DNA from: a virus
Lineage: Duplodnaviria > Caudoviricetes
Virus record (IMG/VR): IMGVR_UViG_3300009181_000072
Location: 1,916-65,915 of that record
Reading direction: 5' to 3' (one strand)
Length of the DNA: 64,000 nt
Of this stretch, positions 2,572 to 30,522 are shown one piece after another. The notes under the pieces are model-generated. The model worked only from the letters and a program-made list of their open reading frames with translations. It had not been told where the DNA came from and made no database searches. Numbering within the stretch: the stretch's first letter is position 1; the number at the start of each line of letters is the position of its first letter. The translations under genes were made by a program, and so were the position numbers.

Positions 2572-2603
2572 GAATCAGCACACATCCAACGGAGATTTCC
2601 AAT

Positions 2604-6674: not shown

Positions 6675-6721
6675 TAAAAAAAGTAACCCGGGCTGCTAGG
6701 TTTATCTTTGCAATACATTAG

Positions 6722-6756: not shown

Positions 6757-6779
6757 AATCTTGACTAAAATATAGTGTC

Positions 6780-8069
6780 ATGACCAAACAACTTGCATCA
6801 AACACTTTCTGCGCTGTACCCTGGGTTGGTATGGCTACTAAACCAAATGGCACAGCCAGAGTCTGCTGCTTAATGTACAGCCACGAAAATCAAGGGATAG
6901 TGTCAGACGATGATAACAATCCTTACAACTTTAGAGATGCTGACTTTGATCAGGTACGCAACGGCGATACATTTAGAGAAATCAGATTGGCATTGCTAAA
7001 TGGTGTAAAACATCCATTGTGCAACACTTGCTGGATAAAAGAAGACGCCGGATCTAACAGTCGCCGCCTGCAAACCAACCGTATCTATAAAGATGAGTTT
7101 ACACTCGATGCCGCTAAACAACATACAGATATCAACGGTCGAACTGATTGGCAACCCAGTTACTGGGATCTGAGATTTGGAAATCTCTGTAATCTAAAAT
7201 GTGTGATGTGCCACCCAAGTAGTAGCAGCCAATGGTATGATGACTATGTCATGTTATACAACGCTGAACAGTACACTGATGGCGGCGCTGTTATCAAACT
7301 GACAAAAAAAGCTAACGGAAAATATGATGCAGGCGGTGCATATGATTGGTGGAAATCTGAACAGTTTTGGAAAACTTTAGAGACTAAGATACCGTATATG
7401 AAGCAGATTTATTTGGTCGGCGGCGAACCAATGCTCATAGAACCTCATTACGAGTTCTTACAGAAGATAATAGATGCCGGTCGTGCAGCCGATATAGTGT
7501 TAGAATACGATACTAACATGACTGCTTTACATGTTCGATCATTTGATCTATGGAAGCATTTTAAAACTATTATACTTAGGACTAGTTTAGAAGACCATAG
7601 TATCCAGAACGATTATATACGGTATCCGTCCAAATGGCATGCTATTGAGAAAAATCTAGACACTATAAGATCTTGGAACGTGTCTAACATACAATGTTCT
7701 AGTTCGACAACCTGGCAGATACTGAACAGTTTCACAATTACCAATCTGCTGGATTATTTTGACAAGACAGATACAGAATATCACGTGCGTATACTTAATT
7801 CGCCGCACTGGTATGATGTCAAGATATTGCCAACACAGCTAAAAGCTTTGCTTATTGAGAAATATACCGCGTGGGCAGGTAGTAACGACAAACGGCAAAA
7901 GAAAATAGCAGTGCTAATAAGCTACTTAAACTCGCATATGGAAACGTATGACGAATCAGCACTTAAACGTTTTATTGCCCTGACAGATAGACTAGACAAA
8001 TCTAGAAACACCAACTGGAAAACAGTATTTCCAGAACTGTATGCTGGCTTAAAATATCTATACGACTGA
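6780..8069 (+). CDS. Radical SAM protein with N-terminal twitch-like Fe-S domain (#1)
   Basis: FCAVPW...CC...CNTCW; CNLKCVMC; GGEP; YDTN; C-term LDKSR. Confidence 0.9.
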   Translation: MTKQLASNTFCAVPWVGMATKPNGTARVCCLMYSHENQGIVSDDDNNPYNFRDADFDQVRNGDTFREIRLALLNGVKHPLCNTCWIKEDAGSNSRRLQTNRIYKDEFTLDAAKQHTDINGRTDWQPSYWDLRFGNLCNLKCVMCHPSSSSQWYDDYVMLYNAEQYTDGGAVIKLTKKANGKYDAGGAYDWWKSEQFWKTLETKIPYMKQIYLVGGEPMLIEPHYEFLQKIIDAGRAADIVLEYDTNMTALHVRSFDLWKHFKTIILRTSLEDHSIQNDYIRYPSKWHAIEKNLDTIRSWNVSNIQCSSSTTWQILNSFTITNLLDYFDKTDTEYHVRILNSPHWYDVKILPTQLKALLIEKYTAWAGSNDKRQKKIAVLISYLNSHMETYDESALKRFIALTDRLDKSRNTNWKTVFPELYAGLKYLYD

Positions 8070-8101
8070 TAATATTATTGTTTGTAGAGTGAGGAAATTA
8101 A

Positions 8102-9352
8102 ATGGATACGGTTAACAAGTCGTCACTAGATAGCAATTCTAAAGTTGTAAATTGGCTGCTCGGTAATAATTTTTGTGCGATGCCGTTTGTGCATGCTGCT
8201 ATAGAATCAAATGGTGATGTTAGAGCATGCTGCATGGCAGATCAATTAGAAGATAACGACGGCAATAGATTGAACATTAATGACCTATCGTTAACAGATG
8301 TATTAGAACATCCGGTATACGTTAAATTCAGAGAATCATTTACTAATAACCAGCAACATCCGTCGTGTGCTGCTTGTTGGAAATCTAATGATATATTTTC
8401 ACCTAGGATAAAATTTAGTGCTGTACCGGCGTTGGATAATTACATGCAAAGTGTAATGTCTGGTGGTAAATTAGATTCCAATCTGTTAAAATTAGAAGTG
8501 AAAGCTGGTAATAGATGCAATCTAAAATGTAGGATATGCGGTCTGATAAACAGTTCTCAATGGTTAAAAGAAACTTACGATTATAATGTACAGCATGGTA
8601 TTACTGTGTTACCTTTTAAAGAAAGTGACGAATATAAATATAATCAACAATGTAAATGGATAGACTCTGACAAGTTTTGGACAGACACCCAAAGCTTAAA
8701 CGATATTCGTGTTGTACACATGATGGGCGGTGAGCCGATGATGATACCAGAACACAAGATATTATTACAGAAACTGCTAGAGTTAAAACATTTTAGTGAG
8801 ATACAAGTATGGTACAATACTAATGCTACCTATGTACCAGATCAAGAGCTTGTTGATATACTCAGCCAATTTAAACAAGTATCAATGTCGTTAAGTATCG
8901 ACGACATCGGTGAACGATTTGAATATCAACGCAAGAATGGTAGCTGGGATACAGTAAACACTGTTCTAGATTTCTTTGAAACTAAAAAAGATGTATGGCA
9001 CGTTGGTATCGATCCGGCAATTAGTATTTTTAATATCATGTATCTAGATGATCTTGTAGAATATTTCACGAGTCGAGGATTTGGTGTATTTGATAATCAT
9101 TTTGTTGATAGTTTGTGGAGCATACGAGCTATTTCTACAGATGCAAAACAAGAGATAATGCAACATTACCAATCTGCTAAACATAAAGATCATCACACTA
9201 TAAAAACTGCATTAGAATATATGCAAACTAACGAGCATACAGACGTTACTGCATCTAATCGCAATGAACGAATTCAATTTTTTGATAAAACTAGGAATGA
9301 GTCGTTCGCTACGACATTTCCAGCGATGGCAAGGATTATGAACTATGAATAA
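8102..9352 (+). CDS. Radical SAM protein with N-terminal twitch-like domain (#2)
   Basis: FCAMPF...CC...CAACW; CNLKCRIC; GGEP; YNTN; SID. Confidence 0.9.
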   Translation: MDTVNKSSLDSNSKVVNWLLGNNFCAMPFVHAAIESNGDVRACCMADQLEDNDGNRLNINDLSLTDVLEHPVYVKFRESFTNNQQHPSCAACWKSNDIFSPRIKFSAVPALDNYMQSVMSGGKLDSNLLKLEVKAGNRCNLKCRICGLINSSQWLKETYDYNVQHGITVLPFKESDEYKYNQQCKWIDSDKFWTDTQSLNDIRVVHMMGGEPMMIPEHKILLQKLLELKHFSEIQVWYNTNATYVPDQELVDILSQFKQVSMSLSIDDIGERFEYQRKNGSWDTVNTVLDFFETKKDVWHVGIDPAISIFNIMYLDDLVEYFTSRGFGVFDNHFVDSLWSIRAISTDAKQEIMQHYQSAKHKDHHTIKTALEYMQTNEHTDVTASNRNERIQFFDKTRNESFATTFPAMARIMNYE

Positions 9353-11021
9353 TAAAAAACTTAGCCCGACTATATGCATGATGCCATTTGCTAGCATTAA
9401 TATCCATGCTACTGGCAAAATCGTTAGGTGCCAGATGAGCGAAGATGAAATGGGTGATGTTGTAAACGGGTCAATAGTAAAGCAGTGGGAAAATGAAGCA
9501 TTCCAAGAGTTGCGACAAGATCAGATAGACGGCAATTGGAATCGAGGCTGTACAAATTGTCTGCGTAAAGAATCTGATGGTATCAAGAGCAAGCGATTGC
9601 ACTGGCAATCTTTAGCTGTTGCTAAGGAATTTTGGGATACAAAAGATTTCAAATCTAGTATAGTTAAAAATGACATATTACATATGGATATAGCGTTCAA
9701 TAACTTATGTAATTTCAAATGTAGGATGTGTTCGTCTGCATACTCAAATGCTTGGATCTCAGATGAGAAAAAGCTCAAAGATGCAGGCTTAGCTGGCGGA
9801 AGTAGCGGAAGTCAGCTACCGAAACTTGCTACTACATACAATCGAGAAAAAAATCAGGTAACAACTGAGCAGTTGACGGAATTGTTAGATAATGCGCCTA
9901 ACTTGCAACGTGTTGAGATACTAGGCGGCGAACCGTTCCTTGTGCCAGAATTTATGACATTTTTAGATGAGATGCGCAGTCGCGGTATCCATAAAAATGT
10001 AGAATTGATGGTCACCACAAATGGTAGTCTGATAACAGAAGAAAAGCTAGACAAACTATTGGGTTTTAAATACGTAAATATTAATTTTAGTTTAGATGCA
10101 ACAGGGGACCTATTCTCATACATGCGATCTGCTGGATTATTTACGTTTGAACAAATAGATAAACAACTTGATCTAGTTTTAGCATGGACTAAGAAAGCAA
10201 CTGCTACCGGATATGGTATATACAAGGTTAACATAAATGGTGCTTATCAGATCTATAATATGTTAAATATCAAAGATTTCATCGAATACATCATAATGAA
10301 ATTTAACTGGTATGAAACACCCCCTATTGAAAATAGTAAGTATCGGCATAGTTTCGAACATCGCATAGTTCTCAATGATACACTTTCTGCAAAAAGTGCA
10401 CCTATTAATCTCAAGTTAGAAAGCAATACACAGATAGATTGGTTGATATCTAAATATCCGTTTTTATTAGACATATCTGAAAAAAGCTACATATTAGATA
10501 TCAAGAAGACCTGTAATCAATACCATGATTCAAAAGATACTGATAGTATTCAGTTTGTTAAATTTACTAGAGAACTAGATAACATACGCGGTGTATCAAT
10601 TGATGATGTGGCGCCGGACGTCATTAAACATTTTTTGCATATAACCGACGATGATTGGCTTTCATATCATCTAGAGTTACAGTCTCGTCCAACAATCACA
10701 GCAGGCTCGTCTGCTATTCCGCATTTCAAAAACTGGCGAACGCTGTATATAAGAAATCTATATCGTGCACTGCACGAGAACAACGTGTTTACACTACTCT
10801 CAATTGAATACGATAAAGATATGCCATACGATGATGCATATTATGTTAGCAAGATATTAGAAGTTCGTTACTCTATATCAATGATAAGCAAAGATGACAA
10901 CAACGATATCCGCCATACTATAAAAACACTGTTTGATAGTGAATTTTATCGTATGTATTATATGATACCAGACAAGTTACAAGCACTAGCAGACATGCTG
11001 GGTAAGAAAATACTAGAATGA
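9345..11021 (+). CDS. Radical SAM protein with N-terminal twitch-like domain and C-terminal extension (#3)
   Basis: ICMMPF...RC...CTNCL; CNFKCRMC; GGEP; TTNGS; ~130 extra residues beyond the paralogs' C-terminus. Confidence 0.9.
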   Translation: MNNKKLSPTICMMPFASINIHATGKIVRCQMSEDEMGDVVNGSIVKQWENEAFQELRQDQIDGNWNRGCTNCLRKESDGIKSKRLHWQSLAVAKEFWDTKDFKSSIVKNDILHMDIAFNNLCNFKCRMCSSAYSNAWISDEKKLKDAGLAGGSSGSQLPKLATTYNREKNQVTTEQLTELLDNAPNLQRVEILGGEPFLVPEFMTFLDEMRSRGIHKNVELMVTTNGSLITEEKLDKLLGFKYVNINFSLDATGDLFSYMRSAGLFTFEQIDKQLDLVLAWTKKATATGYGIYKVNINGAYQIYNMLNIKDFIEYIIMKFNWYETPPIENSKYRHSFEHRIVLNDTLSAKSAPINLKLESNTQIDWLISKYPFLLDISEKSYILDIKKTCNQYHDSKDTDSIQFVKFTRELDNIRGVSIDDVAPDVIKHFLHITDDDWLSYHLELQSRPTITAGSSAIPHFKNWRTLYIRNLYRALHENNVFTLLSIEYDKDMPYDDAYYVSKILEVRYSISMISKDDNNDIRHTIKTLFDSEFYRMYYMIPDKLQALADMLGKKILE

Positions 11022-12178
11022 ATAAAAACAATTTTTGTCATATGCCGTGGCATGGTATCGCTATAGCTGCCAATGGCAATGTAAAACCGTGCTGTCAATA
11101 TTCGCATGGTGTAGATCAAGTTGGTTCCGATACTGATATTACAGCTGCCTATAATAATGATCAAATGAAGCGTATCAGGTCTCAATTCTTGCAGGGTGAA
11201 TCGCCTAGCGGTTGCAATAGCTGTTGGCAGCGCGAACAGCAGATAGGTACAAGCCGGCGTATATGGTTTGATGAAAAGTTTGGTCGATACATACCAACTG
11301 GCTACAAATATACTGAAAACGTTACCGATCCAGTATGGATTCAAGCAGACATAAACTTCTCAAACGTCTGTAATCTCAAGTGCAGGATGTGTGGCAGTTG
11401 GGCTAGCAACCAATGGTTTGACGAAGAACTGCGTTTGGCAAATATTGATTCTAAGTTTATGAAAAACAAGAATCCGGTGCCGCTAATACAGCACGATCTT
11501 GCACAATTACAGAGCATGCTGCCGCACATACAACACATGCGTCGCATTGATTTTAAAGGCGGAGAACCGATGCTTGCAAAATATCATAATCAGTTTTTGG
11601 ATTGGCTTATAGATAAAGGCCACAACAAATCTATCACTCTGCAATATACTACAAATGGCACAGTTATCAATCCGGGTATAGTAGATAGACTGTCTAGATT
11701 TGAGAATGTTAGGATAATGTTCAGCGTAGAAGGTACTGGATCGCTATATCAGTATATCAGAGGCGGCGCTCATAGTTTAGACGAAGTTGTCAATAACATA
11801 TTCAAATATGATCAACTAGATAACGTGTTGATAGGATTCAATGTCACGATACAAGCATACAACATATTAAATCTACGAGAGTTGCACACGTTCTTACATG
11901 CGTTGCCACTTAAACACGGTAGTGCAATCGGTGCATTTACTACCATATGTAACAACCCAGATTATCTCAGTCCGTTTGTTGTACCAGACGACTTGCGAGA
12001 TCTAGCAGTTGATAGGTTAGACGGTATTACAGAGTTACACCATTTATCGAATCAATTACAGAAGCGTGTGTGGGATGCAAGTAAGTGGCAAACATTTGTA
12101 GAATATACTCAACATCTCGACAAGTGGCGCAACGAACGCATCGTAGATCATGCTGCAGAATTTGCCAAGTTCTTCTAA
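11018..12178 (+). CDS. Radical SAM protein with N-terminal twitch-like domain (#4)
   Basis: FCHMPW...CC...CNSCW; CNLKCRMC; GGEP; YTTNGT. Confidence 0.9.
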   Translation: MNKNNFCHMPWHGIAIAANGNVKPCCQYSHGVDQVGSDTDITAAYNNDQMKRIRSQFLQGESPSGCNSCWQREQQIGTSRRIWFDEKFGRYIPTGYKYTENVTDPVWIQADINFSNVCNLKCRMCGSWASNQWFDEELRLANIDSKFMKNKNPVPLIQHDLAQLQSMLPHIQHMRRIDFKGGEPMLAKYHNQFLDWLIDKGHNKSITLQYTTNGTVINPGIVDRLSRFENVRIMFSVEGTGSLYQYIRGGAHSLDEVVNNIFKYDQLDNVLIGFNVTIQAYNILNLRELHTFLHALPLKHGSAIGAFTTICNNPDYLSPFVVPDDLRDLAVDRLDGITELHHLSNQLQKRVWDASKWQTFVEYTQHLDKWRNERIVDHAAEFAKFF

Positions 12179-12283
12179 ATAATGAAACTACTTGCACAGT
12201 GCGCACTGAGATAAGTTGAACAAAAGTGTAGACGGTGATAAAATAGTATTAATGGCCAAATAATAGATGGGGTATAAATCACA

Positions 12284-13675
12284 GTGAGATACTTTGAGAA
12301 ACTACAGGATCGCAGATTAGGTATCGGCTGGTTAGATATATTTGATCGTGTCAACGACGATTTCATAAAATCTGTAACACAAAATCTAACCAGTTACTGG
12401 GTAGGAGAATCGTCTGTTTTTTGGCAGATACCAAACTCTTATGGTCCTAGCGTAGATGTGCTATTAAACGATGCAGCTGACACTGATTTAAAGTGGCTGA
12501 TAATCTGTGCACCCGGCCTGACATTTGTCAGAGATGGTAACTTTTTCCAAATACTATCAACTATGATAGACGGCTTGTCTAATACTGCACTAATGGGACA
12601 TGTGCTGGATACGGGCGATCAGTATTATCAATTGCACCATCAAACCTTGCTTGTAAATCTAGATTGGTATAGAACACATAACAGACCAGAATTTGGTAAA
12701 ACAGACGACCTTGCATGGGAAACAATAGAACCTCTCCGTAGCGAAGAAAGTTTCCACGACGGATATACACCAATCTGGGTGAAAAACGGCAACACATCTC
12801 GGAATTATACCGGAAAAAAACCAGGATGGAATTTGATTAAATCTGCACTTGAATCTGGATACGATGTTAAACCATTTAACAAAGACCTTAGATTAAGCAA
12901 GTACTATTATTACCCAGATGTTGAAGGCGACTGGCCTACTAAGTTAGGTCCAATGAGTTACGATTTGCAGACAACTGTTCACTTCGTTTCAAATACAGAA
13001 TCAGTCATTTATGTTCCCGACGAACACGTTGGAACTTTTGACATATGCATGTTCCCAGCAGGAGGTATTAATGCAATTCTAATACCCTGGATGCTGCGCA
13101 TGAAAACAAATACTACTGTTATGATAAACGATATCAGTCCATTGGCGCTGGACATGGCAGGTAAATTAGTTGCAAATTATCGAGGCGGATCGCTAAACGA
13201 ATTCTTAAACAACAGCTACATATGGCCTAGAGATTCTCAATTTTTTAGAGGATTTTACCGTGCATCTGATCTGAACGAAATATCTGCAATGCAAGAAATA
13301 ATTGATGCAGAAATGAAAAACGGTCTTGGAGAATGGATAGATACGGTTATGCCAACCTTAACCTACCATTTCAATTGTGCAAATGTATTTGATGAAAATG
13401 ACTGGTGGGCATTTTCGCAAGGGGTGCATAGCAAACGCAAAGTGTACGTGAACCTGAGTAATATATGGCATTATTTGCCAACAACAATGATTTTCAGCTT
13501 GAAGAATCGCATGAAGATGCATGATAAAATGATGACTAGATTATCTCAATTAGATGCAGATATACAGCTGCACTATGTACACCCGACGTTAAAAAATATG
13601 ATGTATGTTGCACCAATTGATGCACTGGCTGTACCTATCAATCATAAATTTAAGGTGTTACCATGGAACAACTAA
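12284..13675 (+). CDS. Uncharacterised 463-aa protein in the radical SAM operon (possible transferase; weak methyltransferase-like C-terminal half)
   Basis: Long ORF coupled to the downstream hydroxylase; GHVLD, YQLHHQ, FHDGYTP and MINDISPLAL, VNLSNIW motifs; function not recognised. Confidence 0.55.
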   Translation: MRYFEKLQDRRLGIGWLDIFDRVNDDFIKSVTQNLTSYWVGESSVFWQIPNSYGPSVDVLLNDAADTDLKWLIICAPGLTFVRDGNFFQILSTMIDGLSNTALMGHVLDTGDQYYQLHHQTLLVNLDWYRTHNRPEFGKTDDLAWETIEPLRSEESFHDGYTPIWVKNGNTSRNYTGKKPGWNLIKSALESGYDVKPFNKDLRLSKYYYYPDVEGDWPTKLGPMSYDLQTTVHFVSNTESVIYVPDEHVGTFDICMFPAGGINAILIPWMLRMKTNTTVMINDISPLALDMAGKLVANYRGGSLNEFLNNSYIWPRDSQFFRGFYRASDLNEISAMQEIIDAEMKNGLGEWIDTVMPTLTYHFNCANVFDENDWWAFSQGVHSKRKVYVNLSNIWHYLPTTMIFSLKNRMKMHDKMMTRLSQLDADIQLHYVHPTLKNMMYVAPIDALAVPINHKFKVLPWNN

Positions 13676-17201: not shown

Positions 17202-17202
17202 C

Positions 17203-18772: not shown

Positions 18773-18776
18773 AAAC

Positions 18777-21728: not shown

Positions 21729-21788
21729 GATAAAATGAGTGTGTGCAATGTATAGTGCGTTGCCATTTATGATTAGTAGGATATTGTG

Positions 21789-22016
21789 ATGGAAATGACA
21801 CAGTCAACTCAATATGGTAGATTTATAACTCTGCCAAGTAGTGGCAGCAATGACGAGCATTGCTTAGCAATCAATGATTTTCGATTCTATAATGAAAGTC
21901 TAAGTGAGATTTTATCTTGGTACGCAGATCATAAAATTGAACATGTAAAGCAAGGGGTATTATTGAAATTTGTGAATGCCTCAGACAGGGCATTGTTTAG
22001 TCTTACTTGGAATTAA
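21789..22016 (+). CDS. Small hypothetical protein
   Basis: 75-aa ORF with AGGA RBS. Confidence 0.5.
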   Translation: MEMTQSTQYGRFITLPSSGSNDEHCLAINDFRFYNESLSEILSWYADHKIEHVKQGVLLKFVNASDRALFSLTWN

Positions 22017-22030
22017 AGATACTGCTTGTT

Positions 22031-23481: not shown

Positions 23482-23813
23482 CGTTTATCCTTTGCACTTG
23501 TCCATAATTGATCAAATTCCCTGGCAAGCTCGGGTGACACCCGCCAGTAAAAATCTTCAAACTGCTTCCATGATTTTACTGCCTTAACATGTAATTGGTA
23601 TAATTTTTTATCAAACACACTAAGTTCTTTCCTTGGTATTGGCAGCAGATCAGCATCGCAAGGTATTTTGATACTGTCAGCTGATAATATCATGTACTTA
23701 TAATGTGCATAGTACCAGGGTATATCCATAGCACCATTTAGCATTTGACAGTATTGAATGTTATTTGTGCTGGTATATACATTGCTAAATTCAGTGCCTA
23801 CTACGTATATCAT
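23478..23813 (-). CDS. Hypothetical protein
   Basis: 111-aa ORF with 4-bp ATGA overlaps on both sides. Confidence 0.6.
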   Translation of the reverse strand: MIYVVGTEFSNVYTSTNNIQYCQMLNGAMDIPWYYAHYKYMILSADSIKIPCDADLLPIPRKELSVFDKKLYQLHVKAVKSWKQFEDFYWRVSPELAREFDQLWTSAKDKR

Positions 23814-25396
23814 GACAGGAGTTTGGCCATATATGTTGTGCGTAGCAATTTCTTTCTTTTTTGTGATTCGTTAACATGATTAATATCAGTATTATACATA
23901 TTTTTGATCTCGTGATGTTTGAATCCTAGATTCTTCATGCGATTGTAATCTTGGAAATATGTTAGGCTAAATTTCTGTGGGCATGCAGGATTGTCGTGAA
24001 ACTCTTTTACCAGTGCCCTTGCTTCGTCGCTGGTCATAATTTGACTCTGCCAAGAACTATTACCTAACTTGGCATAACCATATTCATCTGGATTAGCGCT
24101 AATCTTACTCATATGCTTCCAGGTTAATCCTTGTTTATTCTCAGAAAAGCCAGACTCTAATGCAGTAGCCTTTTGTTCTTTTGGAAATTTAATGTTTGGT
24201 GATCCTTCTAGAAAATACGGATACACACCTACGGCTGATAGCGGGTTAGCGTCACTGTATAGATATTCAAAAGTATCGTATATGCTCTCTTTGGTTTCAT
24301 ATGGCAAACCTACTATAAATCCAGCACTCATATAAACATCATCGCCCCAGAGCTTACGAAGCTTTTGCAATGTTTGTTTTAAACTGTCGGGGTCTGCCCC
24401 TTTACCTATATGCTTACCACTTAGCCTATTAAATGTTTCGATACCAAAATTTACAGAAGTTAACCCCATCTCTTTTAGTTTGATTGCCATATCAAAATGC
24501 GTATCTATGATGTCTAGTCTACAGTATGCGCTAAATGTGATTTTAAATGGCAAACTGGTTATGGTAGTGTGTAGATGATCTATCTTTTCCTGACTGTCAT
24601 TGAGCGTGTCGTCGGCTATCATGTAGTCAGTTATACCAAATGTTTCGTAGTTGTATATAAATTCTTCGCGCAGGGTTTCGCTGCACTTGTTATAATCTCC
24701 AAATTTCTTGCCATTGAGATTAAAGCTACAGAAAGAACATTTAAAGATGCACCCTCTAGCTGTTTCTATTGGTATGCTTTCATTTGAAAATAGAAAGTCT
24801 CGATCAGTCCATGTTATTTTACTACTGCTAAATTCTGCAAACGGATACATGGTGTCTGTTAATAGCACTGCATGATTTGTGTGCAAAAATTTGATATCAG
24901 CCCCATATTTGAGATGATTTGCTAAAGCTATAATGCTACCTTCGCCTTGGCCCAATATCCAGTAATCTATGTTTGGTATCTTATGATTGCTTTTTGTAGC
25001 TTTGTACCCACCTACTACTATCTTACAACGGTTGCTACGTTTGCGTATAGTGTTGAAAAAGTGTTCTACAAATGTTGCATCCTGCGGGAACAAATCTGTC
25101 CAGCTGCTGTTCATGATCTGCATGAGACTGGTATTTTGTTCTAATAACGAAACGTATTCGGCATCTGAGTAATATTTGGATAATAGTGTGCTAGCTATAC
25201 CGACTATTATGGTGGTATCATCTAGATATCTATCCAATATCTGATCTAGTTCTTCCTTAGTCAAACTAGCAAAAAACTCTACAACTTGCACATCGTAACC
25301 ATGTGATCGCAATTCGGATGCGATGCGATATGGCCCGCTATACCTACCAAATCCTATCAAACCGTTTATATCGTTGAATATTATTATTTCAGCCAT
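23810..25396 (-). CDS. B12-binding domain radical SAM enzyme (class B-like) #1
   Basis: GPYRIASELRSHGYDVQVVEF, KIVVGG, GQGEGS; ETARGCIFKCSFC; ADDT; FGIET; FIVGLPYET. Confidence 0.9.
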   Translation of the reverse strand: MAEIIIFNDINGLIGFGRYSGPYRIASELRSHGYDVQVVEFFASLTKEELDQILDRYLDDTTIIVGIASTLLSKYYSDAEYVSLLEQNTSLMQIMNSSWTDLFPQDATFVEHFFNTIRKRSNRCKIVVGGYKATKSNHKIPNIDYWILGQGEGSIIALANHLKYGADIKFLHTNHAVLLTDTMYPFAEFSSSKITWTDRDFLFSNESIPIETARGCIFKCSFCSFNLNGKKFGDYNKCSETLREEFIYNYETFGITDYMIADDTLNDSQEKIDHLHTTITSLPFKITFSAYCRLDIIDTHFDMAIKLKEMGLTSVNFGIETFNRLSGKHIGKGADPDSLKQTLQKLRKLWGDDVYMSAGFIVGLPYETKESIYDTFEYLYSDANPLSAVGVYPYFLEGSPNIKFPKEQKATALESGFSENKQGLTWKHMSKISANPDEYGYAKLGNSSWQSQIMTSDEARALVKEFHDNPACPQKFSLTYFQDYNRMKNLGFKHHEIKNMYNTDINHVNESQKRKKLLRTTYMAKLLS

Positions 25397-26543
25397 GGAC
25401 TGATTTCTCTAAGTGATTGTATAATGTTTTCAATTCTGGTACACTGACCGAGACATCCTGACCTCGTAGTTTATCAAGCCGCTCTGTGAATCTAAACCAT
25501 TTTTCTAAAAGTGCAGCATCTTCTCGACCGGTGTGTGCTGCTTCTGCAGTTGGCACGTGTGTTATTAGTTGTTTCTCATAATCTGGCAATATGTGAATCT
25601 TGAGATGCGCTGGATTATACAGAACTTTGTCGTCGTATGTCGGAACGAATCCCAACGATTTTTCGCATTCGGTTTTCAACTTATGATTATCAAATGCATT
25701 GTAAATCATGATGGTATTACTGATAAAGAACTGCGTCACGTTGTCTAATTTTAAGAAGCTCTTTGTGTTTTCTAGAATTTTTGGTACTGGAGTTTCGTTG
25801 CCTCTGATATATTGATTCAATCCGTTGCTGGCATCAATGCTAACACCTAACAATATATCATTAAACTGAGAAATTAGATCTAAAAAATCTGCATCTAATA
25901 TAGTACCATTGGTGGTTAGATCTAAGCTAACTTTGGATTTATCTTTGATGTTAGACAACAGATACATAGTTTCATCTGCATAGCATGGTTCTCCGCCGCG
26001 CAAGCTGATGCAAGTGTGTTCGTCTTTGTTATTGATAATATCCAGCAGTTGGTCTAATTGTTCAATGTTAAGATGGTTATAACGTACAACTTTCTTTTCA
26101 AGCTCAGCTGAATATCCGAATATGCTCTTGATTTCCTGGTCGTGATACTCTGGTATCCATGCTGTGCTCCATTTTGGTTTGCACATGCGACATTTGCTGT
26201 TGCACTTGTTGCTGATATATAACTCGATATAGTTAGTGCGGTGGAATAATCTATCCCCGGCTTGTTCTGCAGTTAGTTGTGACGACAGCTGCAGGTTTTT
26301 CTTTTGTCGCCAGCTAGACAACGATTGACTTTCGTTTTTCCAGCACACATTGCAGGCTGCAGGTCGTTCTCCTGCTAACATTGAATCTTTAAGATCTTGT
26401 AGCTCTGCGCTAGCTAAGTAATTTTTTATGTCTGATTGTCTAACACTATCAACCAAGCAGCACACCTGTACATCGCCCCACGGTTGCAGCACTATCCCTT
26501 GCCACGGTAGTGCACACCACGACTGCGATACTGCATCAGGCAT
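25389..26543 (-). CDS. Radical SAM protein with N-terminal twitch-like domain (#8)
   Basis: WCALPW...VCC...CNVCW; CNSKCRMC; GGEP; TTNGT; SIDA; YIRG; LDKLRG. Confidence 0.9.
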   Translation of the reverse strand: MPDAVSQSWCALPWQGIVLQPWGDVQVCCLVDSVRQSDIKNYLASAELQDLKDSMLAGERPAACNVCWKNESQSLSSWRQKKNLQLSSQLTAEQAGDRLFHRTNYIELYISNKCNSKCRMCKPKWSTAWIPEYHDQEIKSIFGYSAELEKKVVRYNHLNIEQLDQLLDIINNKDEHTCISLRGGEPCYADETMYLLSNIKDKSKVSLDLTTNGTILDADFLDLISQFNDILLGVSIDASNGLNQYIRGNETPVPKILENTKSFLKLDNVTQFFISNTIMIYNAFDNHKLKTECEKSLGFVPTYDDKVLYNPAHLKIHILPDYEKQLITHVPTAEAAHTGREDAALLEKWFRFTERLDKLRGQDVSVSVPELKTLYNHLEKSVHG

Positions 26544-27333
26544 TGATAGTAACCAACCTCATAGTACGTAGTAATCTTATTACTATTGCTATGATGTCTA
26601 TCTCAAACCAGCGGTGCTGGAAATTGTAACTATATGGTTTTTCGTGGTGATTGTTATGCCAGCCTTCTCCAAACGTGAATATAGCAAAGAGTGGCAGATT
26701 CTTGCTATTCTCGTTGGTATCAAAATTACGATAACCTATTATCTTAGGCACATGCATTGACGTATGTGCCAGTGCATTTACTATGCTAGATCCGTGCCAT
26801 TGCCACATTGCGGGTATCCAGTGTAATACTAACACCCACATCGGGCCAAGGCAAACGGCTAGCAATACGCTCCATACTATGTTAATAGTCCAGTAATTTT
26901 TATGGAAAAACAGCACATCTTTGTCGCGCAATAGGTCTAAGCCGAACCTTTTGACATTTGGGGTATGCATCATGCTAAGGAAATAACTGCCCCAGAACCC
27001 AATGTTTTTGGGGCTGTGTGGATCTTTATCGGTGTCGCTGTGTGCGTGGTGCTCCCGGTGCATGGCCACCCAAGCCAAGCTAGATCCTTGTAAGGCAACT
27101 GTGCTGAGAAATAAACATGCTAATTTAAGTATCCTGCTGCGGAAATCTATAGACCGATGTGATAGATACCTATGATTAAGCATGCTGATGCCAAACGTCA
27201 TAGTAAGAAAATATACACCAAAGCTAGCTAACCATTCCCATCCGCTAGCATATATGGCCATTGGTACAATGGCTGCATGCACCAGGAGTTGTCCTGCTAC
27301 TATCTTATATTTCTCAAGTTTTGTATTGACCAT
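26536..27333 (-). CDS. Membrane fatty-acid (delta-9-like) desaturase #2
   Basis: HRYLSH, HREHHAHSDTDKDPHSP, VNALAH, GEGWHNNHH. Confidence 0.93.
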   Translation of the reverse strand: MVNTKLEKYKIVAGQLLVHAAIVPMAIYASGWEWLASFGVYFLTMTFGISMLNHRYLSHRSIDFRSRILKLACLFLSTVALQGSSLAWVAMHREHHAHSDTDKDPHSPKNIGFWGSYFLSMMHTPNVKRFGLDLLRDKDVLFFHKNYWTINIVWSVLLAVCLGPMWVLVLHWIPAMWQWHGSSIVNALAHTSMHVPKIIGYRNFDTNENSKNLPLFAIFTFGEGWHNNHHEKPYSYNFQHRWFEIDIIAIVIRLLRTMRLVTINA

Positions 27334-28247
27334 TAATCTAATCTCGCTTGTCCGCTCTTTTCGAGATATATCTCGTTGAGCGTTTCTTTGGTTATATTAG
27401 TATAGCGCTGATCGTTGCCAGAACACGGATGCTGTTCAAAATCAGCATCGCTTACAAATCTTACTGGGTCGTGCGGTTGTATCTCTTCAAGATCTTCTTG
27501 GCTTTCTAGACATACTCTGATCTGATATCGTATCTCATCGCCGCGGTTGATAGCATAATGTTCTATCCCTGCATTGATAAAAAATATACCACCATCGGCT
27601 GGTAAATGATATTCGTTCCACCCGCCTGCTGTCTTGACCCCTATCACTGACCCTGGGTTGGTTATTATGGGTATCTGTAGTCGGGTGATGTATTCAGCAC
27701 CGATATCAAAATGTTTGGTTATGAATCGACCTGGGTACAGCGATACCACAGCTGCGCGACAACTGTTGCTTTGGAATGATCCTAAGAATTCGTTGATATA
27801 ACCGGCATTATAAACAGTTGGTTTGGTATAGTTGCGCTCGTCGTAGAACGGGTGATAATATTCACTAGATGTATCTACCATACCTTTAAGTCGCTGTACT
27901 GGTGTAAAGTCGCTGACCTTTTTAGTCATGATGTTACCCAGTGTTTTAGCTTCGTCGGTTAGTTCGTGGAATCCAATCACACTGTATCGCTTGTATACTT
28001 CATCATAATTTTTGATGAAATCGTTGCCTTGTTTATTTTTGAGATCATATGTGTGCTCTGTACTGCTTGGGTCCATCTCAAGCAACCCTTGACTAATTTT
28101 CTCTTCGTTTTCTGCGATGAGATGCATGATTTGAGTTCTTGCGCTGTCAAGATCAATGGTCTTGCGTAATCGACCTATTGGTGGCAAGCTGTGCTTGTTT
28201 TTCCTCGTCTTGATAATGTCTCGGTAATTCATGCCTATTTGATGCAT
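27333..28247 (-). CDS. Asp/Asn beta-hydroxylase-like 2OG-Fe(II) dioxygenase (#2)
   Basis: PGRFITKHFD, RLQIPIITN, HLPADG, EHYAINRGDEIR. Confidence 0.8.
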   Translation of the reverse strand: MHQIGMNYRDIIKTRKNKHSLPPIGRLRKTIDLDSARTQIMHLIAENEEKISQGLLEMDPSSTEHTYDLKNKQGNDFIKNYDEVYKRYSVIGFHELTDEAKTLGNIMTKKVSDFTPVQRLKGMVDTSSEYYHPFYDERNYTKPTVYNAGYINEFLGSFQSNSCRAAVVSLYPGRFITKHFDIGAEYITRLQIPIITNPGSVIGVKTAGGWNEYHLPADGGIFFINAGIEHYAINRGDEIRYQIRVCLESQEDLEEIQPHDPVRFVSDADFEQHPCSGNDQRYTNITKETLNEIYLEKSGQARLD

Positions 28248-28325
28248 GGGGGTATGCCTCCAGTTACGATTGTATTATGCGATCTCTATTGATGTGTTTG
28301 TATTTAAACGTTGTTAAATTTAACA

Positions 28326-29756
28326 TCAATTGGTTAGGTTATCTCTTACATATCTAGTTATAAAGTTTTGTCGTTTGACACGTAGTTCGTCTGATTCGTA
28401 TATACGATTGGTCTGTAACATCACATGATCAATGTCAAACCCCATGCTACAAATATCCCCCAAATGAAATCCGCCAACTGGTAAATCTGACCAGTATTTG
28501 TTCATAACATCGTAAGTAAGTTGTTTAACTGTTGCTCTGGTTAACGACCCGTTGGTCCAATTGATACGATTTTTACCTTTAAATTCATATCCATATTTCT
28601 TATACTGCTTGTCAAATTCGCTATGATAAGCTTTGATGTTCTCTTCTGGATTTATGTGTAACGTGTTAAAGGCCCACGAATGCATGTCATTTTCTATTAA
28701 CCATTGAACATCTGCTTCTAACTCATTGGGTGTCCATCCGGGTAACCCAGTTATCATCAGCAATTCCCAACTGACAGTGGCTTTCCATTCTTGTCGTTGT
28801 TTCAGCAACCATTCTTTAGCATGATGGCCGCTCCAGCCTTTTCCTATTATCTTGCTGCTGTCTTTGTTAAATGACTCTATACCAAAATCAGTGCTTCGCA
28901 TCCCGCTATCTTTAAGCCAATTTGCTGTATGCGGTCGAGCCCATATCAGATCAGCTCGACAAAAACCTATCCATTGTATCTGGAAAGGCAGTCCCTGTGC
29001 TAACTCGAGCAACATCTGAACTTTCTCCTCGCTTTCGTTAACAGTATCATCGGTATACCAATAGCGAGTAGTTCCGTACCGTTCGTAGTTATCTAGTACT
29101 TCATGCCTAAGATCTTGATAACTACGCAGATATGTGCCGGGTTTTTTGCCTATCATTGGAAAGCTGCAGTATTTGCATTTAAATATGCAGCCGCGTCCGA
29201 GTTCGAGTTGTAGAAATTCCTCTGGTCTAATAAAATCACTGTCTTGATAAGTTTTTCTAGTGTCTTTTATATTAAAATCTGGTCGCAGGCATCTAATGCC
29301 TTTCTGCTCATCCATCCATTTTAATATTGAATCTTCGGCATACTTGTGAAAGACTATCCACGGTAACTTGAAATCGTTCATACTATTGGCACCGCCCAAC
29401 AGCCAGTTTACATGTTTATATTTTGCCTCTATATTTCCGCGTACCTGTATTAACCAGCAGGGCTCTGACGCTCCAAAACTTATATCGGCAGTATCGTCGT
29501 GCTCTAATTCAATATTATTATACGAATCCTCGTTGGTATCCCAAAACGTAGTACTAACACCTACAGCTAGGGTACCGCTATCAATATTTTTTTCTATTAT
29601 TGATTGTATGTCTGCTGGATCTAGATCATAGCAAAAATCTATTATCTTTGTTGTGTAACCAAACCGTCTAAGCCATGCTGCTAGTTGATATACACCACCT
29701 GATCTAATCACAACATTGTACTGTTTAGATCCAGTGAGAAATATAATATCTGTCAT
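28326..29756 (-). CDS. B12-binding domain radical SAM enzyme (class B-like) #2
   Basis: GVYQLAAWLRRFGY, VGVSTTF, LLGG; ELGRGCIFKCKYC; TDDT; FGIES; ITGLPG. Confidence 0.88.
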   Translation of the reverse strand: MTDIIFLTGSKQYNVVIRSGGVYQLAAWLRRFGYTTKIIDFCYDLDPADIQSIIEKNIDSGTLAVGVSTTFWDTNEDSYNNIELEHDDTADISFGASEPCWLIQVRGNIEAKYKHVNWLLGGANSMNDFKLPWIVFHKYAEDSILKWMDEQKGIRCLRPDFNIKDTRKTYQDSDFIRPEEFLQLELGRGCIFKCKYCSFPMIGKKPGTYLRSYQDLRHEVLDNYERYGTTRYWYTDDTVNESEEKVQMLLELAQGLPFQIQWIGFCRADLIWARPHTANWLKDSGMRSTDFGIESFNKDSSKIIGKGWSGHHAKEWLLKQRQEWKATVSWELLMITGLPGWTPNELEADVQWLIENDMHSWAFNTLHINPEENIKAYHSEFDKQYKKYGYEFKGKNRINWTNGSLTRATVKQLTYDVMNKYWSDLPVGGFHLGDICSMGFDIDHVMLQTNRIYESDELRVKRQNFITRYVRDNLTN

Positions 29757-29867
29757 AAAATTCTGATCCCTGCATATCGTTATTTAAATGCATACTGCAA
29801 TAGATGATTGATATTGCAGTCAGACATCTGTTTGAATTGCAGCGTATTTTTTGATGTACTTTTGGTG

Positions 29868-30434
29868 TCAATCTAGCATGCATGCTACCAAATGAACTCT
29901 TGGTTCTAATCCAGCATTAAATGCAGTATGGTATAAGGTTGTGTTAGCGATATAGACAGATCCGTCTGCAGGTAAATGGGTAGCTTCATTTTCAATTACT
30001 AAATGTGCACCAGGATTAGTAATGATAGGTATGTGTAGACGCCGTTCGCTGTCAGTATGCCAACTGAGACACGATTTTGGACGACTCATCATCAGTCGTA
30101 CTCTGCCTAATCTATAATTAGATCGCAAGGTTTCTATGATCTCAAAAAATATCGTATCTTTAAATTCTTGTACTGTAAATGAGAAATCAGATTCTTTTCG
30201 AACAATTTGGTGTTTTTTAAGATTTCCGTGGTTGTCAACTGCGTCGTTTCCCCACATATATTGTAAGCTACCTGTAGCATCATACCATGCTTCTTTAGCA
30301 TCGTTACCAAGGCTATGGGTTAAACCTATCTGTCGATGATCTGGGTGCCAGTGACATATCTGTAAGATTTGATCCATATCTGATAGCATTCTCGGTAGAT
30401 CAAATCTGGTATCTAATTTCTCAACATGTATCAT
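29868..30434 (-). CDS. Asp/Asn beta-hydroxylase-like 2OG-Fe(II) dioxygenase (#3)
   Basis: RVRLMMSRPKSCLSWHTD, RLHIPIITN, HLPADG, YHTAFNAGLEPRVHLV. Confidence 0.85.
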   Translation of the reverse strand: MIHVEKLDTRFDLPRMLSDMDQILQICHWHPDHRQIGLTHSLGNDAKEAWYDATGSLQYMWGNDAVDNHGNLKKHQIVRKESDFSFTVQEFKDTIFFEIIETLRSNYRLGRVRLMMSRPKSCLSWHTDSERRLHIPIITNPGAHLVIENEATHLPADGSVYIANTTLYHTAFNAGLEPRVHLVACMLD

Positions 30435-30522
30435 GCTTGTTGGTTCCCATATGACATATTATATAGCCTGCCTGTCGTCGATACTAGTCTGTACATACCT
30501 TAAATTTATCAGACCGCTCTTG

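Follow-up and report, generated by a model that had tools for sequence, protein, structure and literature searches.

Results

An uncultured freshwater jumbo myophage with Atu_ph07, Phosso and PA5oct as distant relatives carries 24 genes between those for its tail sheath and tail tube. This block is a member of a widespread, uncharacterised type of gene cluster found in viral contigs and Bdellovibrionota chromosomes. The core of this cluster type consists of several paralogs of the radical SAM family N_Twi_rSAM and one radical SAM protein of the o14 family, usually accompanied by a short SDR (o13). We propose, with a probability of about 0.4, that the cassette tailors a sugar-type or glycolipid molecule in successive radical steps.

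The 24 ORFs tile positions 6780-30434 of the window (the whole 64,000-nt stretch of DNA that was analysed) end to end, with 16 on the plus strand (6780-22669) and eight on the minus strand (30434-22666). The two operons converge, and their stop codons have the TTAA at 22666-22669 in common. Starts and stops overlap, and the coding fraction of the block is 0.984. Apart from one 76-aa ORF, all are at least 80 aa long (n = 23), and exactly 13 of these 23 scanned proteins contain the motif CX3CX2C. Twelve of the 13 score above the Pfam Radical_SAM cut-off; the exception, o1, reaches 26.6 bits against a cut-off of 29.5, yet matches NF033640 with 366.6 bits. A preliminary description of this DNA had counted, besides 13 radical SAM enzymes in two convergent operons, a free Fe-S domain, three AspH-like hydroxylases, two desaturases, an SDR and four unknowns (o5, o15, o17 and the 76-aa ORF). 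This inventory held, and o5 now has a fold assignment. The block had also appeared more AT-rich than its surroundings. Indeed, its GC content is 39.5% versus 47.2% in the remaining window, and per-gene GC is lower in the 24 cassette genes than in 25 flank genes (Mann-Whitney p = 4e-9).

The cassette is a genuine, intact accessory block rather than an assembly artefact. As the preliminary description had proposed, it lies between the genes for the tail sheath (2559..6674, plus strand, 1371 aa; PF17482, 58.9 bits; 43.8% tblastn identity to the Atu_ph07 sheath) and the tail tube protein (30557..31150, plus strand, 197 aa; phrog_4542, 171.9 bits). When both junctions were compared by blastn with every fetched locus, DNA homology to the backbone of the closest relatives was found to end at 6638 and to restart at about 30496-30523, which delimits a variable region at 6639..30495. 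Within the resumed homology, 27 nt before the tube start, is the T4 late-promoter-like word TATAAATA (30523..30530, plus strand); with five matches in the window versus 3.85 expected, its count is not above chance. The chimeric assembly considered in the preliminary description is contradicted by contigs from two other sequencing runs that span the sheath/o1 junction (X2 record 2, 6527-9953, and X4 record 16, 6264-7151). The convergent point at 22666 is spanned by contigs from three runs, and the bridging contigs of other runs have at most three differing letters in 3.4 kb.

Cassette genes occur at the identical site in six related viral contigs, and in the five closest tube relatives (78-91% identity) they are located immediately upstream of the tube gene. 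A single contig, L036, contains a sheath gene (68% identity), two N_Twi genes, o13, o14 (84%), o23 and the tube gene (80%). In most relatives, the slot between sheath and tube is empty or very small. Among 80 tube loci surveyed for this gp18-gp19-type interval, the sheath gene is at most 2 kb upstream of the tube gene in 74 and at most 300 bp upstream in 65.

Eight of the 13 radical SAM proteins match NF033640 over the full model with 203.5-389.3 bits, above its cut-off of 170 bits. Seven are encoded on the plus strand: o1 (6780..8069, 429 aa, 366.6 bits, CX3CX2C at residue 137), o2 (8102..9352, 416 aa, 271.9 bits), o3 (9345..11021, 558 aa, 233.9 bits, extended by about 130 aa at its C-terminus in the alignment), o4 (11018..12178, 386 aa, 306.7 bits), o7 (14406..15569, 387 aa, 389.3 bits), o11 (17525..18772, 415 aa, 289.5 bits) and o12 (18750..20051, 433 aa, 355.5 bits). 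The sole minus-strand paralog is o19 (25389..26543, 384 aa, 203.5 bits). In these proteins, a Cys-rich twitch-type domain at the N-terminus precedes the CX3CX2C core. The paralogs share 26-36% identity with o7; their orthologs in loci L003, L015 and L061 are 38-61% identical with gene order kept. By these sequence comparisons, the divergence of the paralogs is ancient. In its N-terminal domain, the family profile aligns with the twitch domain of the aminocyclitol dehydrogenase BtrN, and the profile also matches SkfB and a sactipeptide maturase. Secondary NCBIfam matches are mostly to RiPP maturases, all with scores far under the cut-offs. The library gives no function for NF033640, and a full-text search on the family name returned generic uses of the phrase alone.

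The signature radical SAM protein, o14 (20574..21728, plus strand, 384 aa as listed; PF04055, 55.4 bits), is the most conserved cassette gene, with a family mean column identity of 69%. Translation probably begins some 10 codons further on than listed; the corresponding Atlas sequence begins at residue 10. The best 120 of 4802 homologs are all at least 62% identical. Its best fold matches are viperin (bound to UTP/CTP), MoaA (GTP), and BlsE and DesII (nucleotide-linked sugars). With TM-scores of 0.3-0.4 from a model of pLDDT 68.9, these matches may reflect nothing beyond the common radical SAM barrel. The partner gene usually encoded upstream of o14 in phage loci is o13 (20048..20608, plus strand, 186 aa), which was found in 24 of the 80 viral loci and 10 of the 59 from genomes. 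A match of its family profile to solved SDRs in the PDB (E 2.3e-11) and invariant Ser90, Tyr103 and Lys107 mark it as a short SDR-type oxidoreductase; it has no Pfam match.

Similar to o14 in having a C-terminal Cys-rich domain is o8 (15556..16482, plus strand, 308 aa; PF04055, 41.9 bits). An enzyme of the o8 type is split over o9, which consists of the radical SAM core only (16479..17201, plus strand, 240 aa; 61.3 bits), and o10, the free Cys-rich, auxiliary-cluster-type domain (17164..17544, plus strand, 126 aa, six Cys; weak match to NF038073 model positions 195-253). The o10 protein resembles the C-terminal domains of o8 and o14 and has homologs in six other loci (39-70% identity); the o9/o10 pair is encoded by separate ORFs in other loci as well. 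The top NCBIfam match of o8, o9 and o14 is prokaryotic viperin, with 41.5-63.8 bits against a 180-bit cut-off.

The two large radical SAM proteins are located in the minus-strand operon. The first, o18 (23810..25396, 528 aa; PF04055, 56.6 bits), has a B12-binding-like N-terminal region, scoring 20.8 bits on PF02310, under the cut-off of 32.1. NCBIfam ranks 'lipid biosynthesis B12-binding/radical SAM protein' first for it and lists HpnJ too (63 bits, far below the cut-offs), and its only PDB sequence match, AprD4, is non-significant (E 0.044). The second, o22 (28326..29756, 476 aa; 48.7 bits), is of the same type and has weak PhpK and lipid-B12 radical SAM matches.

The o5 protein (12284..13675, plus strand, 463 aa) has no match in Pfam or NCBIfam. 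Its AF2 model (pLDDT 78.6) combines a GT-A-like fold at residues 1-227 (VIA Z 9-10.4) with a class I methyltransferase-like fold at residues 225-445 (Z 8-9.5). Homologs are present in 19 of 80 viral loci, and the family contains no invariant DxD motif. The end of o5 overlaps by 13 nt with o6 (13663..14409, plus strand, 248 aa), an AspH-like Fe(II)/2OG hydroxylase (PF05118, 46.4 bits). Across the 20 o5-bearing stretches (19 loci and the window), 18 AspH-like ORFs adjoin an o5 homolog, in either order, and in the Bdellovibrionota locus L139 the o5 and o6 homologs are fused into one ORF. Two more AspH-like proteins are encoded on the minus strand: o23 (29868..30434, 188 aa, 36.2 bits), for which L036 encodes a 58% identical counterpart in the corresponding place, and the borderline o21 (27333..28247, 304 aa; 20.3 bits, just under the cut-off of 22.6; HFD motif). 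All three contain an HxD motif and none has a membrane segment.

The only membrane proteins of the block are two minus-strand desaturase-type proteins with His boxes and TM-like segments. For o20 (26536..27333, 265 aa) the assignment comes from PF00487 (57.2 bits), and for o16 (22666..23481, 271 aa) from 28% identity to o20 (E 7e-25); o16 has no Pfam match and a weak one to NF049918 (46 bits). Three orphans complete the cassette: the 76-aa ORF (21786..22016, plus strand; no NCBIfam match), o15 (22007..22669, plus strand, 220 aa) and o17 (23478..23813, minus strand, 111 aa), the latter two without family match. None had a homolog in 219 fetched loci (at E ≤ 1 for the 76-aa ORF).

Relatives of N_Twi are encoded in at least 553 of 600 candidate stretches from IMG/VR. 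In the 80 viral loci that were kept, N_Twi is present in all and o14 in 44, while of 59 genome loci all contain o14 and 51 also N_Twi (within 10 kb). The Atlas clusters of o14 are 88-100% viral, and 50,697 GenBank phage records contained no o14 homolog. Of 151 Bdellovibrionota genomes sampled, 31 had NF033640 matches above the cut-off, versus 0 of 14 control genomes, and the five genomes checked for copy number each have 7-11 N_Twi genes. In Bdellovibrionota chromosomes, o14 homologs (56-67% identical to o14) have N_Twi and glycosyltransferase genes as neighbours, with further companions of the SDR, AspH-like and desaturase/hydroxylase types. In the cultured isolate Bdellovibrio sp. HCB2-146 (L130), GT2 glycosyltransferases adjoin o14, and the locus also holds a fatty-acid hydroxylase (PF04116, 99.6 bits). 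In a quick o14 tree, most Bdellovibrionota sequences formed two groups (40 and 7 rows, including one row of another kind), and a separate 32-row clade contained 25 of the 32 viral rows.

Other companions in related loci include UDP-glucose/GDP-mannose dehydrogenase, a carbamoyltransferase, an aminotransferase and an amidinotransferase-like protein. These sugar-handling companions and the abundant clusters c0, c1 and c2 are absent from the window, where no sugar-activating enzyme, aminotransferase or canonical glycosyltransferase was recognisable. Desaturases were found in only 8 of 139 related loci (four viral, four genome) and are thus an add-on rather than part of the core.

Discussion

The dedicated multi-step modification pathway of the preliminary description is supported in part, in that the block is a genuine, intact multi-enzyme cassette. 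Its proposal of an undescribed system stands insofar as our literature search found no paper describing the cassette. The cassette is not a one-off, since the kit recurs in viral contigs and Bdellovibrionota, and eight of the 13 enzymes belong to the catalogued NF033640. That family ('twitch domain-containing radical SAM protein') is a catalogue entry only, of which one phage cassette here contains eight diverged members. The syntenic bacterial counterparts, such as L130, are likewise uncharacterised, so novelty is not refuted; they have GT2 genes beside o14, whereas the window has none. Nishimura et al. (2017, mSphere, PMC5332604) recorded a marine T4-like viral genome of 183 kb with 12 genes of the radical SAM superfamily, which that paper names just as Fe-S-cluster-related, without family, cluster description or function.

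In the pathway that we propose, the enzymes would act serially on a single non-protein substrate, most likely of sugar type (a nucleotide-activated sugar or cyclitol) or a glycolipid/glycoconjugate. A conserved early step would be carried out by o14 with the SDR o13. Each N_Twi paralog may then perform one site-specific radical C-H functionalisation via its N-terminal auxiliary cluster, candidate reactions being oxidation, epimerisation, dehydration and C-C or C-X bond formation. The large o18 and o22 enzymes could add methyl groups or rearrange the skeleton, and the AspH-like oxygenases would hydroxylate. The o5/o6 unit, with its nucleotide-sugar-type fold, methyltransferase fold and hydroxylase, may serve in transfer or decoration, and in this phage the two membrane desaturases would work on an attached acyl or lipid part. 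Synthesis would take place late in infection, together with the tail genes. A sole substrate common to all 24 genes is an assumption of this model.

The leads towards a sugar-type substrate, each weak individually, are the BtrN twitch alignment, the o14 folds, the GT-A-like fold of o5, the locus companions and the GT2 neighbours. The closest known pathways by this reasoning are those of BtrN, AprD4, DesII and BlsE (aminoglycoside/aminocyclitol and deoxysugar), to which the likeness consists of the twitch alignment and the o14 fold matches. They share SDR, aminotransferase, amidinotransferase-like and carbamoyltransferase companions with the loci related to the cassette. However, no cassette member scores above any family cut-off, the twitch domain of N_Twi is N-terminal instead of C-terminal, and sugar-activation, aminotransferase and canonical glycosyltransferase genes are missing from the window.

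The cassette might instead modify a protein or peptide, either a virion part (the Ser/Thr-rich sheath or fibres) or a ribosomal peptide, through radical cross-linking, epimerisation or methylation and Asp/Asn-type hydroxylation, possibly followed by glycosylation by o5. The preliminary description had leaned towards this reading; we regard it as a serious but doubtful option. Many SPASM/twitch radical SAM enzymes are peptide maturases, the role for which the group is best known, and AspH-family enzymes, of which the cassette has three, are classically hydroxylases of protein or peptide. The profile matches to SkfB and a sactipeptide maturase point the same way. Proteusin/polytheonamide-type RiPP clusters combine an rSAM epimerase, B12-rSAM C-methyltransferases and an Fe/2OG hydroxylase, the same combination of enzyme classes as the SPASM/twitch-type and large B12-type radical SAMs and AspH-like hydroxylases here. 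Yet RiPP-family scores are far below the cut-offs, Pfam and NCBIfam scans of the 24 ORFs revealed no PqqD/RRE, leader-peptidase or exporter domains, and no conserved precursor-peptide gene was found, the small orphans lacking homologs in the fetched loci.

The coupling, and once fusion, of o5 to an Fe/2OG-type hydroxylase recalls the hydroxylase-glycosyltransferases human LH3/PLOD3 and Mimivirus R699, whose GT-A-type domains match o5 residues 1-227 (Z 8.8-9.9). The LH3 match covers chain residues 293-542, which we take to be a non-catalytic accessory domain; like the lack of an invariant DxD, this speaks against the sugar-type reading. Sequence identity is 6-13%, o5 has an extra methyltransferase-like domain and no conserved DxD, and the cassette hydroxylase is AspH-type rather than lysyl-hydroxylase-type. 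It is gene position alone that points to the virion as target, and the o5/o6 pair would be compatible with this target rather than a demonstration of it. The cassette is inside the tail module, residues 1-800 of the sheath contain 21-28% Ser+Thr, and L146 has two further N_Twi genes among its tail genes. Conversely, L147 has the sheath insertion module without a cassette at the site, and in Bdellovibrionota chromosomes the kit lies next to GT2 genes without a phage virion.

A less likely but still serious alternative is that the minus-strand operon, possibly along with the rest of the cassette, edits host membrane or envelope lipids during infection by acyl-chain desaturation, 2-hydroxylation, methylation or cross-linking. 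The two membrane desaturases with intact His boxes fit such a role, and lipid desaturases carried by cyanophages are a published precedent. PF05118 also includes LpxO and OlsC, hydroxylases of lipid A and ornithine lipids; the two desaturases and three AspH/LpxO-family proteins suit a lipid target as well as a sugar-type one. Further pointers are the top match of o18, weak Tes and GDGT-MAS matches, the PF04116 hydroxylase of the Bdellovibrio isolate, and the co-occurrence of desaturase, large radical SAM and AspH-like genes in other loci (e.g. L023, L038, L086 and L136). Nevertheless, the lipid-family scores are far under the cut-offs (63 versus 360, 55 versus 578), the AspH-like proteins lack a membrane segment, desaturases are an add-on, and acyl-carrier, acyltransferase and fatty-acid synthesis genes are missing from the cassette.

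Nucleotide chemistry, in which o8, o9 and o14 would supply modified nucleotides, either chain terminators of the viperin kind or precursors for DNA hypermodification, for tailoring by the remaining enzymes, is improbable. It draws on the viperin matches of these three proteins, the structural matches of o14 to viperin with UTP/CTP and to MoaA, and a dNMP kinase gene just upstream of the sheath gene. However, the viperin scores are far below the cut-off, the kinase-sheath pairing is backbone synteny seen also in cassette-free relatives, and no base-exchange, hydroxymethylase or DNA glycosyl/aminoacyl transfer genes were recognised in the block.

Finally, bacterial DNA misjoined to a phage contig, or functionless decaying passenger genes, would fit the GC content 7.7 points under the flanks, the o14 homologs in bacterial chromosomes and the sole RNA run with part of 5500-9500, whose contigs lie only on the sheath gene (not evidence of silence), but this explanation is largely refuted and highly improbable given the bridging contigs at the left junction and convergent point, the shared site in six related contigs, the largely viral o14 clusters, and a block with a coding share of 98.4%, starts that overlap stops, and its 13 CX3CX2C, HxD, His-box and SDR-triad motifs all intact.

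The cassette fills a variable slot in the tail module

By its gene set, the source of the window is clearly a phage; the IMG/VR record behind it is a 65.9 kb fragment with a CheckV completeness of 8%. Besides a tail sheath (2559-6674; PF17482, 58.9 bits) and a tail tube (30557-31150; phrog_4542, 171.9 bits), it encodes a full-length GroEL-type chaperonin (45131-46756; phrog_5725, 585.8 bits), a large terminase, a gp32-type SSB, UvsX and a helicase. The ORF directly after the tube gene (31229-32890, 553 aa; phrog_13438, 63.6 bits) has a tail-tube PHROG match confined to its first ~214 residues, and its product resembles a tube-like protein that carries a long C-terminal addition. The best sheath matches come from the jumbo phages Atu_ph07 (43.8% identity) and Phosso (41.0%) and from PA5oct-type phages. 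Window DNA is present in freshwater/lake metagenome runs.

The cassette is a real insertion between sheath and tube. Bridging by contigs from other sequencing runs was examined over positions 5001-25000. A chimera at the left junction, which the preliminary description had named as a possible error, is contradicted by contigs of runs X2 (6527-9953, three differing letters) and X4 (6264-7151) that bridge the sheath gene and the first cassette gene, o1. Contigs of three runs also bridge the point where the two operons converge. The right junction (~30.5 kb) was accepted on the basis of related contigs and DNA homology. The related viral contig L036 holds a sheath (68% identity), two genes of the NF033640 (N_Twi_rSAM) family, hereafter N_Twi, o13, o14 (84%), an o23 homolog on the minus strand and the tube (80%) in one piece. 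DNA homology to close relatives ends at 6638 and restarts at ~30496-30523, just before a T4 late-promoter-like word, TATAAATA.

We surveyed the sheath-tube interval in 80 viral contigs encoding a tube homolog. The sheath lay at most 2 kb upstream of the tube in 74 (at most 300 bp in 65 and 300-2000 bp in nine), with none beyond, and one contig was too short to tell. The five loci with the most similar tube (78-91%) carry cassette genes (desaturase, AspH-like, o14) directly upstream of it. T4-type adjacency of the two genes is found across related tube loci, and cassette genes occupy the slot between them in this phage and in its five to six closest relatives. In Atu_ph07 and Phosso the interval measures 3-4.5 kb and holds small genes and a Ro-like protein. 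The bridging contigs, the tube survey and the homology breakpoints together indicate that the cassette is the occupant of a variable slot in one lineage. Its content differs even between close relatives; Pfam scans of the extra ORFs from two of them, L036 and L144, were mostly blank. A close relative with a 79% identical tube (L146:4521-6769) has two more N_Twi-type genes between homologs of window genes 32903-33376 and 33379-19, so more than one tail-module slot takes such genes.

The contigs of X4 show dense differing letters at 7157-7173 (o1) and 17989-18058 (o11) with near-identical flanks, which suggests strain-level variation or recombination within paralogs. X20, the one RNA run that contains part of 5500-9500 (share 0.17), is a metatranscriptome and yielded seven assembled contigs. 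All seven map to the sheath gene (5001-6692) and 6780-25000 has none, a result with no bearing either way on cassette expression.

Thirteen predicted radical SAM enzymes in two convergent operons

The cassette comprises 24 ORFs. The plus-strand operon (6780-22669) has 16 of them and the minus-strand operon (30434-22666) has eight, and the two meet at TTAA (22666-22669). It is 98.4% coding, stops and starts often overlap, and its GC content is 39.5% compared to 47.2% elsewhere in the window. The ORF, motif, family and GC counts were confirmed, so the preliminary description, which had reported this convergent, AT-rich block and its enzyme families, was correct in every countable item.

Thirteen proteins contain a CX3CX2C motif, the number originally reported, and 12 of these exceed the PF04055 cut-off of 29.5 bits, the exception being o1 (26.6 bits). 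By motif and family score, all 13 are predicted radical SAM enzymes. Phages usually hold one or two radical SAM genes (NrdG, QueE), and 13 in one phage cassette is far beyond that number. All eight N_Twi candidates (o1-o4, o7, o11, o12 and o19) score 203.5-389.3 bits against the curated NF033640 cut-off of 170 bits, and they cover the model at full length, from positions 1-2 to 374-398. C6, C24, C74 and C77 are invariant among them, followed by C120, C124 and C127 of the core. A Pfam SPASM match was obtained at the N-terminus of all except o19, and the N_Twi proteins are predicted to carry a Cys-rich twitch/SPASM-type domain N-terminal to the CX3CX2C core. The other seven are 26-36% identical to o7. 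A second radical SAM type, represented by o8, o9 with o10, and o14, has a C-terminal Cys-rich domain. In the o9/o10 pair this domain is a separate 126-aa ORF, o10, the free Fe-S domain noted earlier; the split was found again in other loci. The large proteins o18 and o22 resemble class B (cobalamin-dependent) radical SAM enzymes in predicted architecture. Their scores do not establish membership of that class: PF02310 gave 20.8 bits for o18 against a cut-off of 32.1 and no match for o22, and the best NCBIfam scores of the two were 53-63 bits against cut-offs of 360-600. A PDB sequence search with o18 returned only AprD4 (E 0.044).

Among the three proteins described as AspH-like hydroxylases, o6 (46.4 bits) and o23 (36.2 bits) exceed the PF05118 cut-off of 22.6, whereas o21 falls just under it at 20.3; the HxD motif is present in all three. 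A PDB sequence search with o6 gave no match. Both reported desaturases hold: o20 scores 57.2 bits on PF00487 (cut-off 29.7), and o16, which has no Pfam match, is homologous to it (E 7e-25). Each has His boxes and TM-like windows. The short SDR o13 (186 aa) likewise has no Pfam match, yet its family profile matches solved SDRs over the catalytic half (E 2.3e-11), and S90, Y103 and K107 are invariant in 15 sequences. Of the four unknowns, the 76-aa ORF, o15 and o17 remain orphans with no homolog among the 219 loci fetched, and o5 now has a fold match in a predicted model.

o5 and o6 form a unit

Although o5 has no Pfam or NCBIfam match, its predicted fold (pLDDT 78.6) combines a GT-A-like domain (residues 1-227) with a class I methyltransferase-like domain (225-445). 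The former matches STIV A197, Manic Fringe, LH3, the PBCV-1 capsid glycosyltransferase and Mimivirus R699 (Z 9-10.4 over ~150-170 residues), and the latter gives fold matches at Z 8-9.5. In the 14 sequences of the o5 family there is no invariant DxD; invariant residues include H106, H118 and Q120, and H158 is near-invariant. An AspH-like gene adjoins o5 homologs almost always and in either order, with 18 adjacent AspH ORFs in 20 o5-bearing stretches. In a Pseudobdellovibrionaceae MAG (Bdellovibrionota; L139:1998-4283), one 761-aa ORF joins an o5-like part (residues 66-448; hhalign probability 99.3%) to an o6-like AspH-type hydroxylase (503-728; 30% identity, E 7e-25). The adjacency in either order and this fusion indicate that o5 and o6 are one functional unit. 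Their likeness to hydroxylase-glycosyltransferase proteins would fit either glycan tailoring or protein hydroxylation with glycosylation.

Related cassettes in viruses and Bdellovibrionota

The cassette type is not unique to this phage. A scan of IMG/VR with an alignment of the N_Twi paralogs found at least 553 relatives among the 600 candidate stretches listed, while o7 alone as a query against viral contigs found none. All 80 viral loci that were kept have N_Twi genes, usually several per locus; o14 occurs in 44, the o8/o9 type in 42, AspH-like genes in 32, the SDR in 24 and o5 in 19. Most of the plus-strand gene order recurs in three loci (L003, L015 and L061), whose orthologs are 38-61% identical. 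This is well above the identity of 26-36% between paralogs, indicating that the N_Twi subfamilies are old.

The most conserved gene is o14, with 4802 homologs (best 89% identity), a mean column identity of 69% across a spread of 14 sequences, and Atlas clusters that are 88-100% viral. It had no homolog by tblastn among 50,697 GenBank phage records. Megablast of the whole block against GenBank phages found nothing. With o2 as the tblastn query, the sole matches were two Vibrio phages at 23% identity, and neither the o14 nor the o2 query brought up a Campylobacter phage. Scanning 185,579 species genomes for o14 identified 59 loci, mostly in Bdellovibrionota, which are known predatory bacteria; these include complete chromosomes as well as the isolate Bdellovibrio sp. 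HCB2-146. In 51 of these loci, N_Twi genes are found near o14, and all five o14-bearing genomes checked had 7-11 N_Twi genes over the cut-off. Such genes were present in 31 of 151 sampled Bdellovibrionota genomes compared to 0 of 14 control genomes.

The o14 phylogeny is a quick tree, from which we draw no direction of transfer. One clade (support 100) unites 25 viral rows with seven MAG rows labelled as other phyla, and most Bdellovibrionota rows fall in two separate groups of 40 and seven. The window o14 pairs with L036 outside the main viral clade. The seven MAG contigs (L087, L093, L110, L115, L134, L136 and L137) were binned as Flavobacteriales, Rickettsiales, Verrucomicrobiales, Gammaproteobacteria, Chloroflexota and Crocinitomicaceae, and are probably mis-binned phage DNA.

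The commonest Pfam-named companions in related loci, other than radical SAM genes, are an aminotransferase, a carbamoyltransferase, GT2, UDP-glucose/GDP-mannose dehydrogenase and an amidinotransferase-like protein. The neighbours of o14 in the Bdellovibrio isolate are GT2 genes, more radical SAMs and a fatty-acid hydroxylase. Companion cluster c1 (179 ORFs) is not one family, being a single-linkage merge of at least two. Its main part, A5, is a family of ~240-280 aa (L130:9300-10025, from the isolate, and relatives) with conserved GGWxG, DIDP, INTSCEH and LQSNN motifs that look methyltransferase-like; it lies directly upstream of o14 in Bdellovibrio genomes and many viral loci. A5 had no Pfam match and no PDB match at E ≤ 1, and hhalign gave it no significant relationship to o5 (probability 3%). 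Clusters c0, c1 (including A5) and c2 have no member in the window.

Possible products of the pathway

In our view the cassette is a phage-borne biosynthetic/tailoring gene cluster built around enzyme families with no characterised member. Weighing leads and counterpoints together, we put the probability that it performs stepwise radical tailoring of a sugar-type or glycolipid molecule at about 0.4, ahead of protein, lipid and nucleotide chemistry, in that order, and of an artefact. Several leads point to sugars. The N-terminal domain of the N_Twi proteins can be aligned with the twitch domain of the aminocyclitol dehydrogenase BtrN. Nearest in fold to the o14 model (pLDDT 68.9) are viperin, MoaA, BlsE and DesII, which act on nucleotides or nucleotide-linked sugars; the TM-scores are only 0.3-0.4. 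Sugar-handling companions in related loci, and the GT2 genes around o14 in the isolate, point the same way. Against a simple sugar reading, no sugar-activating enzyme or canonical glycosyltransferase was recognised in the window, o5 lacks a conserved DxD, and the abundant companion clusters c0-c2 are absent. The lipid-type gene content of the minus-strand operon also counts against it.

Modification of a protein or peptide, virion included, would also suit the o5/o6 unit but appears unlikely overall. Pfam and NCBIfam scans of the 24 ORFs found no RRE/PqqD, protease or exporter domain. The block does not qualify as a RiPP biosynthetic cluster, as these domains are missing and none of its few small or orphan ORFs has a homolog among the 219 loci fetched; a very divergent precursor peptide might still be present. 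Lipid remodelling as the main role ranks next and is improbable too, even though the gene content of the minus-strand operon suggests a lipid target: it encodes two membrane desaturases and AspH/LpxO-family proteins, along with large radical SAM proteins whose best weak matches are lipid or hopanoid enzymes. Nucleotide chemistry, to which the fold neighbours of o14 might point, is very unlikely: o8, o9 and o14 score 49.5, 63.8 and 41.5 bits on the prokaryotic viperin model (NF038283), far below its 180-bit cut-off, and do not qualify as viperins. An artefact is scarcely credible given the bridged left junction.

Extending the sugar or glycolipid reading, the N_Twi and o14 'tailoring line' common to jumbo phages and predatory Bdellovibrionota might produce glycoconjugates or aminoglycoside-like molecules of a new class, heavily functionalised at C-H bonds. 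During the attack on a bacterial cell, such a molecule would either serve as a decoration on the surface or tail of the attacker or act on the envelope of the victim, remodelling or poisoning it. Each of the eight N_Twi subfamilies would carry out its own reaction, of a kind so far undescribed for radical SAM enzymes. As a whole, we regard this extension as doubtful.

A full-text literature search (the family name; radical SAM in Bdellovibrio, jumbo phages and T4-like viral genomes) found no description of the cluster. The nearest statement in print is one sentence in Nishimura et al. 2017 (PMC5332604), which notes 12 radical SAM genes in a T4-like environmental genome. Neither NF033640 nor the o14 family (~4,800 homologs, up to 89% identity) has a characterised member, yet both are abundant in aquatic viral contigs and Bdellovibrionota, so discovery of the substrate would assign function to thousands of genes. 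It would probably reveal new radical chemistry, and would show which costly, oxygen-sensitive biosynthesis a phage needs late in infection. The window adds an insertion site with sharp boundaries that can be compared with cassette-free relatives, a freshwater lineage in which o14 falls outside the main viral clade, a side operon of lipid type, and the coupling of GT-A-like fold, methyltransferase-like fold and hydroxylase in o5/o6. The cultured Bdellovibrio isolate with homologous genes is a possible genetic system.

Sheath module and promoter-like words

The sheath contains an insertion module of ~170 aa (residues 491-660, window 4029-4538) that is 39% identical to part of ORF 49443-50558 (49773-50282, minus strand). 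The same module occurs in the sheaths of L036 (60%) and L147 (38%). Since L147 lacks a cassette between sheath and tube, the module can occur independently of the cassette; three loci are too few for a test. Within 6400-26000, promoter-like sites (79, compared to 70.6 in shuffles) and terminator-like sites (11, compared to 12.1) showed no difference. The word TATAAATA occurs five times in the window, not above the chance expectation of 3.85. One copy lies 27 nt upstream of the tube start, and two overlapping copies on opposite strands (54117-54128) lie 34 nt upstream of the plus-strand ORF 54162-55037.
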